In this document: positions 1 to 4,332 of the stretch, one piece after another
Layout of the letters: each line of letters begins with the position of its first letter
Position numbering within the stretch: position 1 is the first letter of the stretch
DNA from: a virus
Lineage: Duplodnaviria; Heunggongvirae; Uroviricota; Caudoviricetes
Strand: one strand, 5' to 3'
Length of the DNA: 4,332 bases
Virus record (IMG/VR): IMGVR_UViG_2531839675_000018
The notes under the pieces: generated by a model
What the model saw: the letters and a program-made list of their open reading frames with translations, nothing else
Told to the model about the DNA's origin: nothing
Database searches by the model: none
Translations under genes and position numbers: made by a program

Positions 1-1
1 T

Positions 2-298
2 GTATCAAAAGCCGGTGAGCGTTATCGCCGGGCTGTGGCGCTTATTGTTCGCCAGCAGCGGCTGAAATTAAGCCTGTCCGGACGGCTGGCAATAAAAATT
101 ATTGCAGAACCACCGGATAAGCGCCGCCGTGACCTGGACAACATTCTGAAAGCACCGCTGGATGCGCTGACGCATGCGGAAGTGCTCATTGATGACGAGC
201 AGTTTGATGAAATCAATATTGTGCGCGGTCAGCCTGTGCCAGGTGGACGGCTGGGCGTGAAGATTTACGAAATCAGAGGTGGTAACGATGGCGCGTGA
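2..298 (+). CDS. rusA: Holliday junction resolvase RusA, C-terminal part (5' end lies upstream of the window)
   Basis: The reading frame is open from base 2 to the TGA at 296-298. The translation (…[30 protein letters not shown]…[11 protein letters not shown]…) aligns closely with E. coli RusA as I recall it (…[30 protein letters not shown]…GGRLELTITEM…). The ORF track starts it at an internal Met at 35, but the frame continues to the window edge. Confidence 0.88.
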
Positions 299-659
299 TA
301 TCCAGATGGTTCTTGAGCGATGGGGGGCATGGGCAGCAAATAATCATGAAGATGTAACATGGCCCTCGATAGCTGCTGGTTTTAAAGGATTAATCCCGAC
401 TAAAGTGAAATCACGTCCTAAGTGTTCTGATGATGACGCCATGATAATTTGTGGTTGTATGGCACGATTAAACAAGAATAATCAGTATTTGCACGATTTG
501 TTGGTGGATTATTACGTAGGTGGAATGACATTTATGGCTCTTGCACGTAAGCATAGATGTTCTGATGGGCTTATTGGTAAAAGGCTTTATAAAGCGGAAG
601 GTATTATTGAAGGAATGCTTATGGCTCTGAATGTCCGGTTAGATATGGATATGCGGTAG
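288..659 (+). CDS. Phage late-gene antiterminator Q (QuuD / Phage_antitermQ-like), 123 aa
   Basis: The ORF lies directly after rusA, as in DLP12 and other lambdoid prophages. The N-terminus [25 protein letters not shown] resembles QuuD-type Q proteins from memory, and the Cys-rich segment ([12 protein letters not shown]) fits the family. I prefer the ATG at 288 (GAGG at 275-278, about 8 nt upstream) to the GTG at 279 used by the ORF track. The start overlaps the rusA stop by 11 nt, suggesting translational coupling. Confidence 0.75.
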
Positions 660-750
660 GGATATATAGTGATGAGGGTTATGTTTTCTGTGTTTATAAT
701 TAACATGTTTATTTTTTGATGGTCATGTATTGTGGAAGGTAGATAAAATG

Positions 751-779
751 TTGCCTGGTGAATTGAAAATATTGATAAT
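751..779 (+). promoter_or_regulatory. Candidate sigma70 promoter (possibly the phage late promoter pR' region) upstream of the CPBP gene
   Basis: TTGCCT at 751-756, a 17-nt spacer, and GATAAT at 774-779. It sits in an AT-rich intergenic region about 90 bp after the Q stop, which is where lambdoid phages place pR'/qut. This is motif matching only. Confidence 0.3.
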
Positions 780-810
780 CAATCTTCATCATTAAATAAA
801 AGGAGTGCTT

Positions 811-1629
811 ATGTGGATTGTGTTAGTACTGTCACTGTCAACTCTCAGTTGGCATAAGGTAGTGGCTTTTTCATTGTTGACGGTGTCTGTTGTCCTGGCT
901 GTGCTTAATGATATTATTGATTGGTCGGTGTTATTTTTTGTTGCTACAATCGTTTTTTTTATTATTTTGAAGTTCAACTGGAAATATAACGCCTGGGCTA
1001 AATCTATATATGAAGTTGGCATAGTTTTATCAGCCATAGCATTATTTTTCCATCTATGGCCAGGGTTTCACAATCCTGTAGTGCTAAATTCTGTTACTGT
1101 TGGCCCTCAAAGTACTCCCTATACAATGTATTTTAATTTTGATAAAGCGCTGGTGCCATTTTTGTTAGTCCTGTGTACATCTTCTTTGTTTAAAAAAGAA
1201 GTAAAATCAGAAGTGTCTTTGTGGAAGTGGGGGGCTCTGTCGCTCTCTGTTCCTCTTATCCTGTTTTTGGCTGTTTTTTTTGGTGGATTAAAGCCAGAGA
1301 TTCATTTTCCTGAGTGGTTGCCAGAGTTTATATTGGCTAATTTGTTTTTTGTGTCTCTGGCAGAGGAATCATTATTTAGAGGGTATATTCAATCACGGCT
1401 ATCAGAAGTAACGTCTCCATTGGTTGCATTAATTGTGGCGGCTTTGTTGTTTGGTTTTTATCACTATTCAGGTGGTGCTTTACTTGTATTATTTGCCACG
1501 TTATCTGGTGTTGTGTATGGATTGTCATGGATGTGGAGTGGGCGTTTGTGGGTTGCCACCCTTTTCCATTTTGGTTTGAATCTGTGTCACTTGTTATTCT
1601 TTACCTATCCATTTTTAAAACATAATTGA
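811..1629 (+). CDS. CPBP family intramembrane metalloprotease (CAAX protease / Abi, PF02517-like), polytopic membrane protein, 272 aa
   Basis: The protein is highly hydrophobic with several predicted TM helices. It carries the three CPBP signature motifs in the canonical order: EExxxR (EESLFRGY), FxxxH (FGFYH) and HxxxN (HFGLN). AGGAG at 801-805 lies 5 nt before the ATG at 811, so I prefer this start to the track's GTG at 805, which overlaps the SD. The gene is AT-rich with ATA and CTA codons. Confidence 0.8.
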   Translation: MWIVLVLSLSTLSWHKVVAFSLLTVSVVLAVLNDIIDWSVLFFVATIVFFIILKFNWKYNAWAKSIYEVGIVLSAIALFFHLWPGFHNPVVLNSVTVGPQSTPYTMYFNFDKALVPFLLVLCTSSLFKKEVKSEVSLWKWGALSLSVPLILFLAVFFGGLKPEIHFPEWLPEFILANLFFVSLAEESLFRGYIQSRLSEVTSPLVALIVAALLFGFYHYSGGALLVLFATLSGVVYGLSWMWSGRLWVATLFHFGLNLCHLLFFTYPFLKHN

Positions 1630-1770
1630 TTTTTTCTATGGTTTTAAATTTATAAGACTGAAAAATAGCAGGACGTGACATTTGCATGAAAAATATGCAC
1701 GGCAAAGCATTTACGTACGTAAAAAATCAGGTATGCTGTTAAGAGTGGTTATTTCGCCGCATAGCTTGAC

Positions 1771-1792
1771 CCCGCCTCTGAGCGGGTTTTTT
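1771..1792 (+). terminator. Rho-independent terminator candidate
   Basis: CCCGC (1771-1775), loop CTCTGA, GCGGG (1782-1786), followed by TTTTTT (1787-1792). The middle GCGGG can alternatively pair with CCCGC at 1796-1800. The stem is short (5 bp). Confidence 0.5.
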
Positions 1793-1915
1793 GTGCCCGC
1801 AAAGTAGCGCAGTGCGTTAAATGTGCTGGTAGTTATTAATACAGGTCTTTCAGCTTGCTGGCTTTTTCGACAAGAGTTATTGGTGTGTCACGTTAACCGG
1901 AAAGGGTAAAAAGAC

Positions 1916-2155
1916 ATGCTGAAACAGCAGGATATGACAGAAACCGCCAGAGTTGTGTTTGATGAATTAAGCGTCACCGAACCGGCGACGGTCGGGGAGA
2001 TTGCGCAGAATACGTACCTTTCACGCGAGCGCTGCCAGTTAATACTGACCCAGCTGGTTATGCGGGTCTGGCAGACTATCAGTTCGGTTGTTACAGACGC
2101 CTTCAGTCCTGAAGGCTTTTTTATTTGTGGTAAATGGGCGGCTGGTGGGTGTTAG
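1916..2155 (+). CDS. Small hypothetical protein (79 aa), possible winged-helix DNA-binding protein (PapI/FaeA-like pattern)
   Basis: An SD-like AAGGG lies about 9 nt before the ATG at 1916. The segment VVFDELSVTEPATVGEIAQNTYLSRERCQLILTQLV has the helix / xxTxxEIA / recognition-helix pattern of small winged-helix regulators such as PapI or FaeA. The similarity is by eye only. It sits 94 bp upstream of, and co-oriented with, the AraC-family gene. Confidence 0.45.
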   Translation: MLKQQDMTETARVVFDELSVTEPATVGEIAQNTYLSRERCQLILTQLVMRVWQTISSVVTDAFSPEGFFICGKWAAGGC

Positions 2156-2183
2156 CGGCACCTGTCAGTCCTTTGCTTATGTG

Positions 2184-2214
2184 TTGATGATAATTTACCT
2201 TTTGGGGCTATAAT
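2184..2214 (+). promoter_or_regulatory. Candidate sigma70 promoter for the AraC-family gene
   Basis: TTGATG at 2184-2189 and a perfect TATAAT at 2209-2214. The spacer is 19 nt, which is longer than optimal. It lies in an AT-rich region 36 bp upstream of the start codon. Confidence 0.3.
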
Positions 2215-2249
2215 TGAACTAACCAATTGCTAATGAAAGTAAAATTATA

Positions 2250-2963
2250 ATGGTTGTTGTCTGTTCAGTTATCATGGTTTGCTCCCCAATTAATATTTTT
2301 CTTGAAAAGGATACGTTGTCACTTAAGCCCGGCTCAGTCGTTCTGGCCACCAAATGCATCAGGGCGCTTTTCCTTATGCATTATGGCAAAGTTAAAATTT
2401 TCGATATAAACCATTCCATAGTAAGTCAATATCTGGAAATTCAGCATAAGCTGACAAGAACTCATCTGACTGACGTTCCGCTTTATCTGTCACTGGAACC
2501 CAACAACCCTGCGTTGGCTGAGGCTTTAATTACCAGCCAGAGATTTTCCGGAGATACCACGGATATGTTTCTTATGATGGCATGCCTGTCGCTGTTTGAA
2601 TCAGATGAACGGATATTATTATTTTTAAGTGGATGTTTATCCAGTATAAGTGCCAAAGTCAGGGCGATAATTCAGACAGATATATCAGCAAGCTGGACGC
2701 TTGGTGCGATTGCGTTACGCCTGCATATGAGTGAGAGTTTGTTAAAGATAAAACTGAAAAATGAAGGGCACATGTTCAGTCGCTTGTTGCTGGAAGAGCG
2801 GATGCGTGTTGCTGTCAATATGTTATGTTCCCGGCATGGATATGGACAGGCTGTAGCAGAAAAATGCGGTTATTCAAGCTGGTCCTACTTTATTTCTGTA
2901 TTTCACCGCTATTATGGCTTCCCGCCAGACAGATATGTATCCAGGCAAGGGCTTGATTATTGA
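2250..2963 (+). CDS. AraC/XylS-family transcriptional regulator, YdeO/GadX-like (prophage-encoded Psr/PatE-type regulator candidate), 237 aa
   Basis: The C-terminal region has the AraC-type HTH (…WTLGAIALRLHMSESLLKIKLK…AEKCGYSSWSYFISVFHRYYGFPPDRY). The N-terminus MVVVCSVI… and blocks such as ISESLLKxKLK and AExCGYxSxSYFI match E. coli YdeO as I recall it. By my hand translation the gene has about 7 ATA, 3 AGA, 3 AGG and 3 CGG codons in 237 codons, and it is AT-rich. Confidence 0.85.
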   Translation: MVVVCSVIMVCSPINIFLEKDTLSLKPGSVVLATKCIRALFLMHYGKVKIFDINHSIVSQYLEIQHKLTRTHLTDVPLYLSLEPNNPALAEALITSQRFSGDTTDMFLMMACLSLFESDERILLFLSGCLSSISAKVRAIIQTDISASWTLGAIALRLHMSESLLKIKLKNEGHMFSRLLLEERMRVAVNMLCSRHGYGQAVAEKCGYSSWSYFISVFHRYYGFPPDRYVSRQGLDY

Positions 2964-2991
2964 TTTTCATCTGATTATTATTTTTTGACCC

Positions 2992-3067
2992 AGCCCTTTA
3001 GCTCAGTGGTGAGAGCGAGCGACTCATAATCGCCAGGTCGCTGGTTCAAATCCAGCAAGGGCCACCA
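2992..3067 (+). tRNA. tRNA with anticodon CAU, closest to tRNA-Ile2 (ileX-like, lysidine-dependent AUA reader); ileZ-like phage tRNA
   Basis: Hand-folded cloverleaf: D-stem GCTC/GAGC, anticodon loop CT-CAT-AA, T-arm GCTGG-TTCAAAT-CCAGC, and an encoded 3' ACCA. Overall it is close to E. coli ileX as recalled. It has A:C mismatches at positions 1:72 and 27:43. A Met identity cannot be excluded from sequence alone. Confidence 0.75.
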
Positions 3068-3074
3068 TCACATA

Positions 3075-3151
3075 CCGCCATTAGCTCATCAGGAAAGAGC
3101 GCCAGCTTTCGAAGCTGGTTGCGCGGAGTTCGGGTCCCCGAAGGCGGTCCA
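3075..3151 (+). tRNA. tRNA-Arg (anticodon UCG), atypical
   Basis: Hand-folded cloverleaf: D-stem GCTC/GAGC with GG in the D-loop, a perfect anticodon stem CCAGC/GCTGG with loop TT-TCG-AA, and an encoded CCA at 3149-3151. It is atypical: C1-G72, a mismatch at 6:67, a mismatch in the T-stem, and T-loop TTCGGGT with G where A58 is expected. It could be a functional phage tRNA or a degenerate copy. Confidence 0.55.
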
Positions 3152-3164
3152 TTATCTGTATCCT

Positions 3165-3241
3165 GCGTTGTTAGCTCAGCCGGACAGAGCAATTGCCTTC
3201 TAAGCAATCGGTCACTGGTTCGAATCCAGTACAACGCGCCA
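3165..3241 (+). tRNA. tRNA-Arg (anticodon UCU; reads AGA)
   Basis: Clean cloverleaf: acceptor GCGTTGT/ACAACGC, D-stem GCTC/GAGC, perfect anticodon stem ATTGC/GCAAT with loop CT-TCT-AA, T-arm ACTGG-TTCGAAT-CCAGT, discriminator G and an encoded CCA. Confidence 0.85.
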
Positions 3242-3255
3242 CACTTATTTTCCCT

Positions 3256-3281
3256 GGCTCGCTTTTGCGGGCCTTTTTTTT
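3256..3281 (+). terminator. Rho-independent terminator immediately downstream of the tRNA cluster
   Basis: GGCTCGC (3256-3262), loop TTTT, GCGGGCC (3267-3273) giving a 7-bp stem with one G-U pair, followed by eight T residues (3274-3281). Confidence 0.7.
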
Positions 3282-3478
3282 AAATGTCTCACAATTCAGG
3301 CGGTTGACTGTTGTCTGGTTTGCGGGGAGTTTGTTAAAAGAAACTGGCATGGTGAATCCCCCTGTGCGGAGGGGCAATCAGCGAGTAGGTATATGGGATA
3401 ATCGCGGATTCAGGTGCTGGTACTGAATTCACCGGGAGGCACCCGGCACCATGCAATGGCACATAGCGCCACTCTCCA

Positions 3479-3502
3479 GCCCCTCTCCGGAGGGGCTTTC
3501 TT
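3479..3502 (+). terminator. Hairpin with weak U-tract (terminator candidate, + strand)
   Basis: GCCCCTC (3479-3485), loop TCCG, GAGGGGC (3490-3496) form a perfect 7-bp stem, followed by TTTCTT. Confidence 0.35.
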
Positions 3503-3508
3503 ATGGAC

Positions 3509-3537
3509 AAAAAAAGCCCGCGCAGGGAGACGCGGGC
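3509..3537 (-). terminator. Rho-independent terminator on the minus strand (orphan: no convincing minus-strand gene upstream of it)
   Basis: GCCCGCG (3516-3522), loop CAGGGAGA, CGCGGGC (3531-3537) form a perfect 7-bp GC stem. On the + strand it is preceded by seven A residues (3509-3515), so on the minus strand the hairpin is followed by UUUUUUU. Confidence 0.55.
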
Positions 3538-3605
3538 GGCAAGGAATAAACAACAAAACGTGAAGTAATATTTCAGCTGGCGAATAATATCCGACAGTAA
3601 TCACT

Positions 3606-3628
3606 CTGCGCAATAGCGCGGCCTTTTT
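3606..3628 (+). terminator. Hairpin plus T-run (terminator or attenuator candidate) about 100 bp upstream of the esterase gene
   Basis: CTGCGC (3606-3611), loop AATA, GCGCGG (3616-3621) form a 6-bp stem with one G-U pair, then CC and TTTTT (3624-3628). Confidence 0.35.
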
Positions 3629-3730
3629 CGTATTGCGGGCTGTTGTCTCTCTTCTGCCATTGTCCTGTAACTTCCGGATTTCAGCCCGCTCATCATTTTA
3701 CTCACAATATTATCCCGGCCGGGAGGATTC

Positions 3731-4332
3731 ATGGCATTTAAACACTACGATGTGGTCAGGGCGGCATCGCCGTCAGACCTTGCTGATGCACTTGCGCAAA
3801 AAATTCGTGAAGGATGGCAACCATACGGTGGGCCGTTTTCTTCGTATACGGATGATGGCGCAGCACTTATTCAGGCGATTGTCGCAGAAGGTGATGTGAG
3901 CACACCTGTTGTGGTGAAGCTGACAGGTGGAGAAGGTGCAGTAATCAGCGCCACCAGCGACCCCGGGTATTACTTTGTTGTGGTTCTGGCAGGGCAGTCA
4001 AACGGCATGTCGTATGGTGAAGGTCTTCCGCTGCCGGAGACATATGACCGTCCGGACCCGCGCATTAAGCAGCTGGCGCGTCGCAGTACGGTGACACCGG
4101 GCGGTGTCGCCTGTAAATATAACGACATCATTCCGGCGGACCATTGTCTGCATGATGTGCAGGACATGAGCCGCCTTAACCATCCGAAAGCGGACCTGTC
4201 AAAGGGGCAGTACGGAACCGTGGGGCAGGGGCTGCATATCGCCAAAAAATTGCTGCCGTTTATACCGGCGAATGCGGGCATTCTGCTGGTTCCGTGCTGT
4301 CGTGGTGGTTCAGCGTTCACCACCGGAGCCGA
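3731..4332 (+). CDS. DUF1737-domain / sialate O-acetylesterase (NanS-p-like, SGNH/SASA family), N-terminal part (3' end lies beyond the window)
   Basis: The frame is open from the ATG at 3731 to the window end; it is missing from the ORF track because it has no in-window stop. GGGAGG at 3721-3726 lies 4 nt before the ATG. The translation MAFKHYDVVRAASPSDLADALAQKIREGWQPYGG…YYFVVVLAGQSNGMSYGEG… contains a GQSN block typical of SASA/SGNH esterases. A gene of this type follows the tRNA/stx region in Stx phages (established knowledge). The segment is GC-rich relative to the cargo. Confidence 0.8.
   Translation, partial: MAFKHYDVVRAASPSDLADALAQKIREGWQPYGGPFSSYTDDGAALIQAIVAEGDVSTPVVVKLTGGEGAVISATSDPGYYFVVVLAGQSNGMSYGEGLPLPETYDRPDPRIKQLARRSTVTPGGVACKYNDIIPADHCLHDVQDMSRLNHPKADLSKGQYGTVGQGLHIAKKLLPFIPANAGILLVPCCRGGSAFTTGA

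Follow-up and report, generated by a model that had tools for sequence, protein, structure and literature searches.

The window analysed here, a stretch of 4,332 nucleotides from a Caudoviricetes record (IMGVR_UViG_2531839675_000018), carries a gene whose sequence and setting identify it as psrA, an AraC-type regulator borne by EHEC prophages. The gene is loaded with ATA, AGA and AGG codons and lies directly upstream of tRNA genes that read them. The reading that we consider probable, with a good deal of confidence, is that psrA acts as a prophage regulator of secretion, that its codons are the signature of AT-rich cargo, and that its adjacency to the tRNA genes reflects a modular location without any dedicated coupling. 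Both the gene and its context are already known; the analysis identifies the gene cleanly, corrects its place in the family and adds a comparative argument on the tRNA adjacency.

Identity and prophage setting of the gene

The open reading frame of 237 codons occupies positions 2250-2963 on the + strand, from ATG to TGA. Its product matches Pfam HTH_18 at residues 155-230 (36.6 bits against a gathering cut-off of 33.6) as well as HTH_AraC (35.3 bits against 26.6), and so has the C-terminal DNA-binding domain of about 100 amino acids, with two helix-turn-helix (HTH) motifs, that marks the AraC/XylS regulators. By BLAST the protein is 100% identical to ECs_1087 of the Sakai prophage Sp4, over 237 of 237 residues when the long start is used; local BLAST likewise gives a 100% match to WP_000261909.1 in resequenced EDL933, and many O157:H7 genomes carry a gene that is identical to the open reading frame at the DNA level (100%). 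The Sakai annotation starts the gene at 2376, with a product of 195 amino acids. All Psr alleles and the paralogues conserve the first 42 residues, and the N-terminal motif shared with most relatives (see below) likewise supports 2250; the later start was therefore rejected, and the Sakai product is too short.

An exact-sequence look-up of the protein returns only generic names, none of which ties it to z1789 or psrA. The group that discovered the Psr family writes “psrA (ecs1087, Sp4)” (PMC13502914, 2026), and reviews equate psrA with z1789 and psrB with z2104 of OI-57, with 90% identity between both (PMC10877973, PMC8565820). The Sakai gene ECs_2191, on Sp11, shows 90.7% protein identity and 94% DNA identity to the window gene. 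Sp11 bears nleG5-2/6-2/2-3 and pchB and is therefore of the OI-57 type, so the 90.7% figure agrees with the published distance between PsrA and PsrB. Sakai Sp10 was also considered as the site of this second psr copy, which is absent there. Finally, the sRNA EvrS has been located with the regulator z1789 on one side and the esterase z1793 on the other (PMC11774850), a layout with which the window order of psrA, tRNA genes, an STnc100-family sRNA and an esterase gene agrees. Together, the identity to ECs_1087, the published naming, the z1789-EvrS-z1793 layout and the 90.7% match to PsrB identify the window gene as psrA itself, beyond a mere relative. In resequenced EDL933, psrA was sought in CP-933N/OI-50, the prophage to which the literature assigns it, and is not there; it sits in a yccA-adjacent, Sp4-like prophage.

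The window covers the late-regulatory region of a lambdoid prophage, in the order rusA (3' part), Q, protease gene, small open reading frame, psrA, three tRNA genes and the start of an esterase gene, with Q and the features after it on the + strand. The antiterminator gene Q (288-659) is called by Pfam Phage_antitermQ (E = 8e-52) and by PGAP. It is followed by an AT-rich cargo gene for a CPBP/Rce1-like intramembrane protease (811-1629; Pfam Rce1-like, E = 1.4e-19), a terminator-like hairpin from the terminator scan (1771-1786), and an open reading frame of 79 amino acids (1916-2155) that PGAP takes as a frameshifted TrmB-family regulator. Downstream of the tRNA genes, a full-length match to the Rfam sRNA family STnc100 lies at 3318-3508 on the + strand (RF02076; 138 bits, above the gathering threshold of 47; E = 1.7e-31) and coincides in position with EvrS/Esr023, a published EHEC sRNA. 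The last gene, for an esterase of the DUF1737/SASA (NanS-p) type, runs off the window edge with only its 5' part inside (3731-4332; Pfam DUF1737; PGAP). Compared with O157 Sp4, this 5' region diverges after position 3786, so that the window derives from a recombinant variant of the strain or prophage.

In all psr loci examined, psr stands between Q and the esterase or lysis genes. The window gene, a member of the Psr (prophage-encoded secretion regulator) family known from attaching-and-effacing E. coli, is an AT-rich cargo gene, or “moron”, in that interval, in the same post-Q slot that stx occupies in Stx phages. In Sakai Sp4, ECs_1087 is followed by ileZ1-argN1-argO1 and, 4 kb further downstream, by pchA. 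Across Sp4 and Sp11, pchA and pchB lie within 4-7 kb of psr, and nleG genes are present on Sp11. An association of psr with pch and effector genes on lambdoid prophages therefore holds for this locus in Sakai, the pch gene itself falling outside the window; pch genes near psr loci are a published feature, with which the Sakai pchA position agrees.

What PsrA does is known from reviews and two recent papers, on which the functional statements here are based. It is an AraC/XylS-type activator that raises GadE and YhiF (DctR) (PMC10877973, PMC8565820, PMC13502914), an increase that turns on the glutamate-dependent acid-resistance island (PMC10877973, PMC8565820), and via GadE it represses LEE type III secretion (PMC10877973, PMC8565820, PMC13502914). 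Deletion of psrA raises secretion, unlike deletion of psrB, which has little effect; PsrB, the closest paralogue of PsrA, shows direct binding to the promoters of gadE and hdeA, and CP-933N/OI-50, as the papers call the prophage, contributes together with PsrA to persistence in sheep (PMC10877973, PMC8565820). Both psrA and gadE rise after HnrS, a prophage sRNA that represses hha, is expressed in a pulse (PMC13502914). A sequence-only reading of this DNA had proposed a prophage-borne AraC-type regulator linked to acid resistance (GAD) and LEE. The first part is borne out by the Pfam HTH domains, the lambdoid late region and membership of the subfamily that holds YdeO, GadW, AppY and PatE; the second is correct and already established, since the gene is psrA.

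Relatives of PsrA

That reading also called the protein YdeO-like, with resemblance at both the N-terminus and the HTH domain. The resemblance is real and extends over the full length: direct BLASTP aligns YdeO to PsrA at 31% identity over residues 1-233 (E = 6e-31), and an N-terminal M-x-x-V-C-S-V-I motif is common to Psr and the regulators compared, except GadX and EnvY. The K-12 paralogues had been taken from the annotated genome for this comparison, as a word-seeded homologue search had missed YdeO. The label holds at the level of the subfamily and fails for the nearest relative. The PatE candidate ECs_0287, an assignment based on its family and on where it lies, at the end of Sp1/OI-8, rather than on a locus-tag cross-reference, aligns over its full length at 37% identity (E = 1e-51), followed by GadW (35%, E = 1e-38) and AppY (29%, E = 2e-33). 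GadX and EnvY align only in their C-terminal part.

The same picture emerges from a neighbour-joining tree built with 200 bootstraps. The Psr sequences form a clade with 100% support, in line with the identities of the window protein to ECs_1087 (100%) and ECs_2191 (90.7%), and the sister of this clade is PatE (72%), then AppY with GadW (96%). YdeO branches outside Psr, PatE and AppY/GadW, with GadX and EnvY beyond it. The alignment and tree that had been proposed as a check, against YdeO, GadX, GadW, PatE and PsrA/B, thus put PsrA in the Psr clade with PatE as sister and within the same subfamily as YdeO and GadW. The possibility of a YdeO orthologue was rejected, YdeO being fourth among the relatives compared and the gene lying in a prophage late region, not in a safA-ydeO context. 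PsrA therefore belongs to the same subfamily as YdeO, yet is not its orthologue. In a search of a large database, the Psr family is almost confined to E. coli and Shigella, with alleles that range from 100% down to 56% identity.

These relatives share some features of psrA and lack others. PsrB (z2104, OI-57; ECs_2191, Sp11) is encoded in the same post-Q slot, directly upstream of ileZ and with a pch gene nearby, but on another prophage, beside a cassette without argN, and with 4 ATA and 5 AGR codons against 7 and 6 in psrA. PatE (z0321, OI-8) is also a prophage-borne AraC-like activator of acid-resistance genes of the gadE/hdeA type, and its gene is also rich in rare codons, but that gene sits at one end of a degraded prophage instead of following Q, and no tRNA genes adjoin it. 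The K-12 regulators YdeO, GadW, GadX and AppY have the subfamily architecture with the C-terminal dual HTH, and all have gadE and the acid fitness island as targets, although they are only 29-35% identical to PsrA; ydeO is a chromosomal gene that adjoins safA.

Rare codons and the tRNA cassette

The psrA gene holds 7 ATA, 3 AGA, 3 AGG, 3 CGG and no CGA codons, so the earlier hand count of about 7 ATA and 6 AGA/AGG was exact. ATA, AGA and AGG together make up 13 of the 237 codons, or 54.9 per 1000. How unusual is this load? The answer depends on the background, for which the gene sets are small (25 and 30 genes). Against 25 core genes beside Sp4 (4.7 per 1000) the load is about 12 times higher (p = 2e-10), against 30 other Sp4 genes (23.3 per 1000) it is about twice as high (p = 0.004), and against the Sp4 genes with GC below 0.46 (29.0 per 1000) the excess is again about twofold (p = 0.022). 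Enrichment over the composition-matched prophage background, at only about twofold, is marginal. The gene itself has a GC content of 0.42 and lies in a stretch of 40-43% GC, with flanks of 0.50-0.57.

Paralogues and effector genes place the load in a wider frame. Per 1000 codons, ATA, AGA and AGG together number 65 in the PatE gene, 96 in appY, 37 in gadX, 29 in gadW and 20 in ydeO, the last of these fewer than in psrA, and these genes have no tRNA neighbours. Among toxin and effector genes the values are 75 in stx2kA, 96 in nleG6-2, 78 in espN, 49 in espK and 42 in nleL, of which espN, espK and nleL lie on a prophage without any tRNA cassette. Set against the host core, then, the codon load of psrA stands far outside the norm; it mildly exceeds that of its own prophage, and among AT-rich EHEC cargo it is nothing unusual.

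Within the gene, rare codons cluster at codons 133-145 (ATA133, AGG138, ATA140 and ATA145). The cluster is largely kept in Psr alleles down to 58% identity and is absent in PatE, GadW, AppY, YdeO, GadX and EnvY. A comparison of six alleles gives no excess conservation of ATA: of nine isoleucine columns that are invariant, three are fixed as ATT and two as ATA. On this positional evidence the alignments give no sign of selection for rare codons.

The tRNA genes begin 28 nt after the psrA stop codon, close to the 30 bp that had been estimated, and the earlier statement that they read these codons is correct for ATA and for AGA/AGG. ARAGORN and Rfam call three genes on the + strand: ileZ at 2992-3067 (anticodon CAU; Rfam tRNA, 66 bits), argN at 3075-3151 (UCG; argN1 of Sakai) and argO at 3165-3241 (UCU; Rfam, 70 bits; argO1 of Sakai). 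The tRNA-Arg with anticodon UCU reads AGA and AGG, and that with UCG reads CGA and CGG. Position 1 of ileZ is an A opposite C72, unlike the G1 of ileX. ARAGORN labels the CAU tRNA as Met, a label that was rejected because the gene aligns with ileX and not with metT/metU: it follows K-12 ileX in the anticodon stem, the T-arm and the C3-C5 acceptor bases, differs widely from metT/metU, and so combines the CAU anticodon with a body that is not that of tRNA-Met. PGAP and the Sakai annotation likewise give tRNA-Ile/ileZ (ileZ1). It is therefore of the tRNA-Ile2 type, which would carry isoleucine and read AUA once TilS has converted C34 to lysidine.

Is this neighbourhood peculiar to psr? Close alleles suggest a fixed arrangement. 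All 726 psr-bearing genomes hold a place that covers at least 80% of a query made of psr and the tRNA genes, and Psr alleles at 80% and 78% protein identity have tRNA genes 27 nt downstream, although in one of the two a tRNA-Gly(UCC) replaces argN. In more distant alleles the arrangement breaks up. The allele of locus L013 (63% identity) has no tRNA gene within 4 kb on either side and still carries 54 rare codons per 1000, and that of L014 (58%) has ileZ-argN 1.4 kb upstream, beyond another open reading frame, with 58 per 1000. Psr alleles as a whole span 38-58 per 1000, whether tRNA genes are adjacent or not.

The cassette, in turn, is far more widespread than psr. Of 5426 complete E. coli genomes, 3061 match it (2579 at a coverage of at least 80%), whereas psr is found in 726, and the cassette recurs at up to 13 places per genome, with 7-9 among the O157:H7 records listed. 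Only one of the 289 phage records with the cassette also has psr; the other 288, mostly Stx2 phages, lack it. In Stx phages such as the 933W-type Stx2a phage, the same three tRNA genes, at 95% identity, follow Q and precede cargo such as stx2, nearly always without psr upstream, and Sakai Sp10 has a Q-ileZ-argO arrangement without psr. By its distribution, the ileZ-argN-argO cassette is a generic module of lambdoid late regions. The simplest reading would make psr one of several cargo genes that can be accommodated between Q and the cassette; under it, inheritance of one module from a common ancestor would explain why close alleles keep an invariant psr-ileZ junction.

Coupling or shared location

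Could psrA nonetheless depend on its neighbours? The sequence-only reading held that translation of psrA may be coupled to the supply of phage tRNA. In its fullest form, this would mean that synthesis of PsrA is limited in rate by the tRNA-Ile2 and tRNA-Arg(UCU) that come from a downstream, possibly co-transcribed cassette, and that the output of PsrA would follow the expression of prophage tRNA. The cognate decoders do lie directly downstream, and none of the 726 genomes with close alleles departs from the psr-ileZ junction; psrA stands twofold above the composition-matched Sp4 genes, and the codon cluster at 133-145 is partly conserved. However, the alleles of L013 and L014 carry the same codon load with no tRNA gene nearby or with the tRNA genes upstream, PatE, AppY and effector genes without tRNA neighbours are equally rich or richer, ATA is conserved no better than ATT, the 133-145 cluster is absent in the paralogues, and descent from one module can account for the junction. 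The host, moreover, has its own ileX/ileY, argU and argW. With these genes and some 7-9 cassette places per O157:H7 genome, it is unlikely that psrA depends on the copy beside it. The comparative data thus give the proposed coupling no support, and we regard a dedicated one as improbable; its absence is what the distribution of alleles, paralogues and cassettes would suggest.

Transcription signals leave some room for a physical link. Promoter and terminator calls here are consensus matches from pattern scans. The best sigma-70-like match of the region, ATGATA-16-TATAAT (10 of 12 positions; 2187-2214, + strand), ends 36 bp upstream of the psrA start and is a candidate for the promoter that would serve psrA in the lysogen. 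The terminator scan finds no convincing terminator in the 28-nt spacer between psrA and ileZ, and after argO it finds a strong intrinsic-terminator-like hairpin (3256-3273) with a run of eight T (3256-3281, + strand), which is likely to be the end of a transcript that comprises either psrA and the tRNA genes or the tRNA genes alone. With the terminators placed in this way, transcription may run on from psrA into the tRNA genes, and a psrA-tRNA operon is possible. This arrangement also speaks for the dedicated coupling discussed above.

The same signals could be read in the opposite direction, with the psrA promoter driving ileZ-argN-argO in the lysogen, so that conditions that induce psrA would yield more AUA/AGR decoders for virulence genes rich in rare codons. 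The best promoter-like site of the region does lie just upstream of psrA, with the unterminated spacer before ileZ and the terminator after argO, and in genomes without psr the homology of the cassette begins only 3-15 nt before ileZ, from which it follows that no conserved promoter comes with the cassette. But the support for this direction consists of pattern matches only, a second promoter-like site at 2953-2981, overlapping the 3' end of psrA, could drive the tRNA genes independently, and the many further cassette copies would dilute any effect. We therefore give this direction little credence.

A version that joins both directions has psrA and ileZ-argN-argO as one transcription unit in the lysogen, with the cluster at codons 133-145 making the synthesis of PsrA sensitive to the supply of AUA/AGR decoders. 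If true, a regulator that turns the type III secretion system off and the decoders of virulence genes rich in rare codons would come from one promoter, a feed-forward link from prophage transcription through decoding capacity to the GAD/LEE switch. We rate it a long shot.

The reading we prefer is a shared location without dedicated coupling. The high content of ATA, AGA and AGG would be the codon usage that is customary in EHEC genes acquired horizontally and rich in AT, and the place of psrA beside ileZ-argN-argO would reflect a shared modular location downstream of Q, since the cassette is a generic module of late regions. The cassette tRNAs probably help to decode the whole pool of prophage and virulence genes rich in rare codons, psrA included. 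The first descriptions of the 933W tRNA genes, in the late 1990s, reportedly raised the idea that prophage tRNAs boost the translation of phage and virulence genes rich in rare codons. A literature search on ileZ, argN, argO and rare codons in Stx phages found nothing relevant.

The adjacency of rare codons and tRNA genes would then belong to AT-rich prophage cargo in general and to the module downstream of Q, and not be a device specific to psrA; a specific dependence of psrA on these tRNAs, if shown, would add a modest new layer of regulation. The importance of the gene lies in its known role. Through PsrA, in work published from 2011 to 2015 and still being extended, cryptic prophages are tied to the switch between acid resistance and LEE and to the colonisation of ruminants by EHEC.

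The psr reading frame and its upstream neighbour

The reference annotation of the Sakai strain gives psrA and its close relative psrB as 195-aa products that begin at an internal methionine, which for psrA means a start at window position 2376 rather than 2250. The 42 codons 5' of the annotated start form an open frame that is conserved in every Psr allele and in the paralogues PatE, YdeO, GadW and AppY, and sequence conservation thus makes the 237-aa form, as used by PGAP, the likely product of both genes. The full-length Sakai ORFs lie at 43678-44391 of locus L005 and 39933-40646 of locus L012. Between the antiterminator gene Q and psr, most loci examined also have a small ORF that is intact and 65-73 aa long. 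It is immediately 5' of psr in L016-L018 and L021, is separated from psr by other genes at the diverged alleles L013 and L014, and is absent at L019. Its window counterpart is a 79-aa ORF (1916-2155, plus strand), annotated by PGAP as a frameshifted TrmB-family regulator, with a terminator-like hairpin (2099-2116) within its 3' end.

Prophage context

Where does psrA reside in EDL933? The literature assigns it (as z1789) to CP-933N/OI-50 (PMC10877973, PMC8565820), whereas the resequenced genome (CP008957) holds an identical psrA and its tRNAs in the yccA-adjacent, Sp4-like prophage (L007, 1245000-1294999; gene at L007 21009-21722). The potB-adjacent nleL/espN/espK prophage of the same genome (L006, 1630000-1679999) lacks both the AraC gene and the tRNAs, and runs Q - TerB - DUF3927 - esterase. 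The discrepancy stems either from near-identical prophage segments having been put together another way in the original assembly or from a difference between strains.

The entire window finds a single-piece match in none of the complete E. coli genomes of the collection. O157 genomes match at 99.8% over 1-3786 and diverge beyond, in the esterase 5' region (3787-4332), and O121:H19 genomes cover 1-4332 at 98.1% in three pieces. By sequence comparison, the prophage from which the window derives is a mosaic variant.

An sRNA downstream of the cassette

Between argO and the esterase gene, the window scan found a full-length match to Rfam STnc100 (RF02076; 3318-3508, plus strand; 138 bits, E = 1.7e-31). 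In position this agrees with the published EvrS/Esr023, mapped in EHEC between z1789 and z1793; EvrS is an oxygen-responsive 154 nt sRNA through which the LEE is repressed via z2269 (PMC11774850). Convergent with the STnc100 terminator is a strong minus-strand terminator-like hairpin (3516-3537; 8 pairs, 7 of them G-C, T7 tail), which may end an unannotated minus-strand transcript beginning near the esterase gene start.

psr alleles and their tRNA cassettes

Of the phage records that carry the tRNA cassette, 289 in all, one has psr as well: the complete Stx2k phage genome phiSTEC1575-Stx2k (OQ243220; L021 5001-7324). It matches the psrA-tRNA query at 92% nucleotide identity, its allele has 51 rare codons per 1000, and ileZ-argN-argO and stx2kAB lie directly downstream. 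In the window ileZ (2992-3067), A1 stands opposite C72, leaving the first acceptor position unpaired, unlike the G1-C72 pair of K-12 ileX. The Psr allele with 78% identity is followed by ileZ - argO - tRNA-Gly(UCC) (L019/L020, 4741-4973) in place of ileZ - argN - argO, and comparison of these gene orders shows that cassette turnover occurs downstream of psr.
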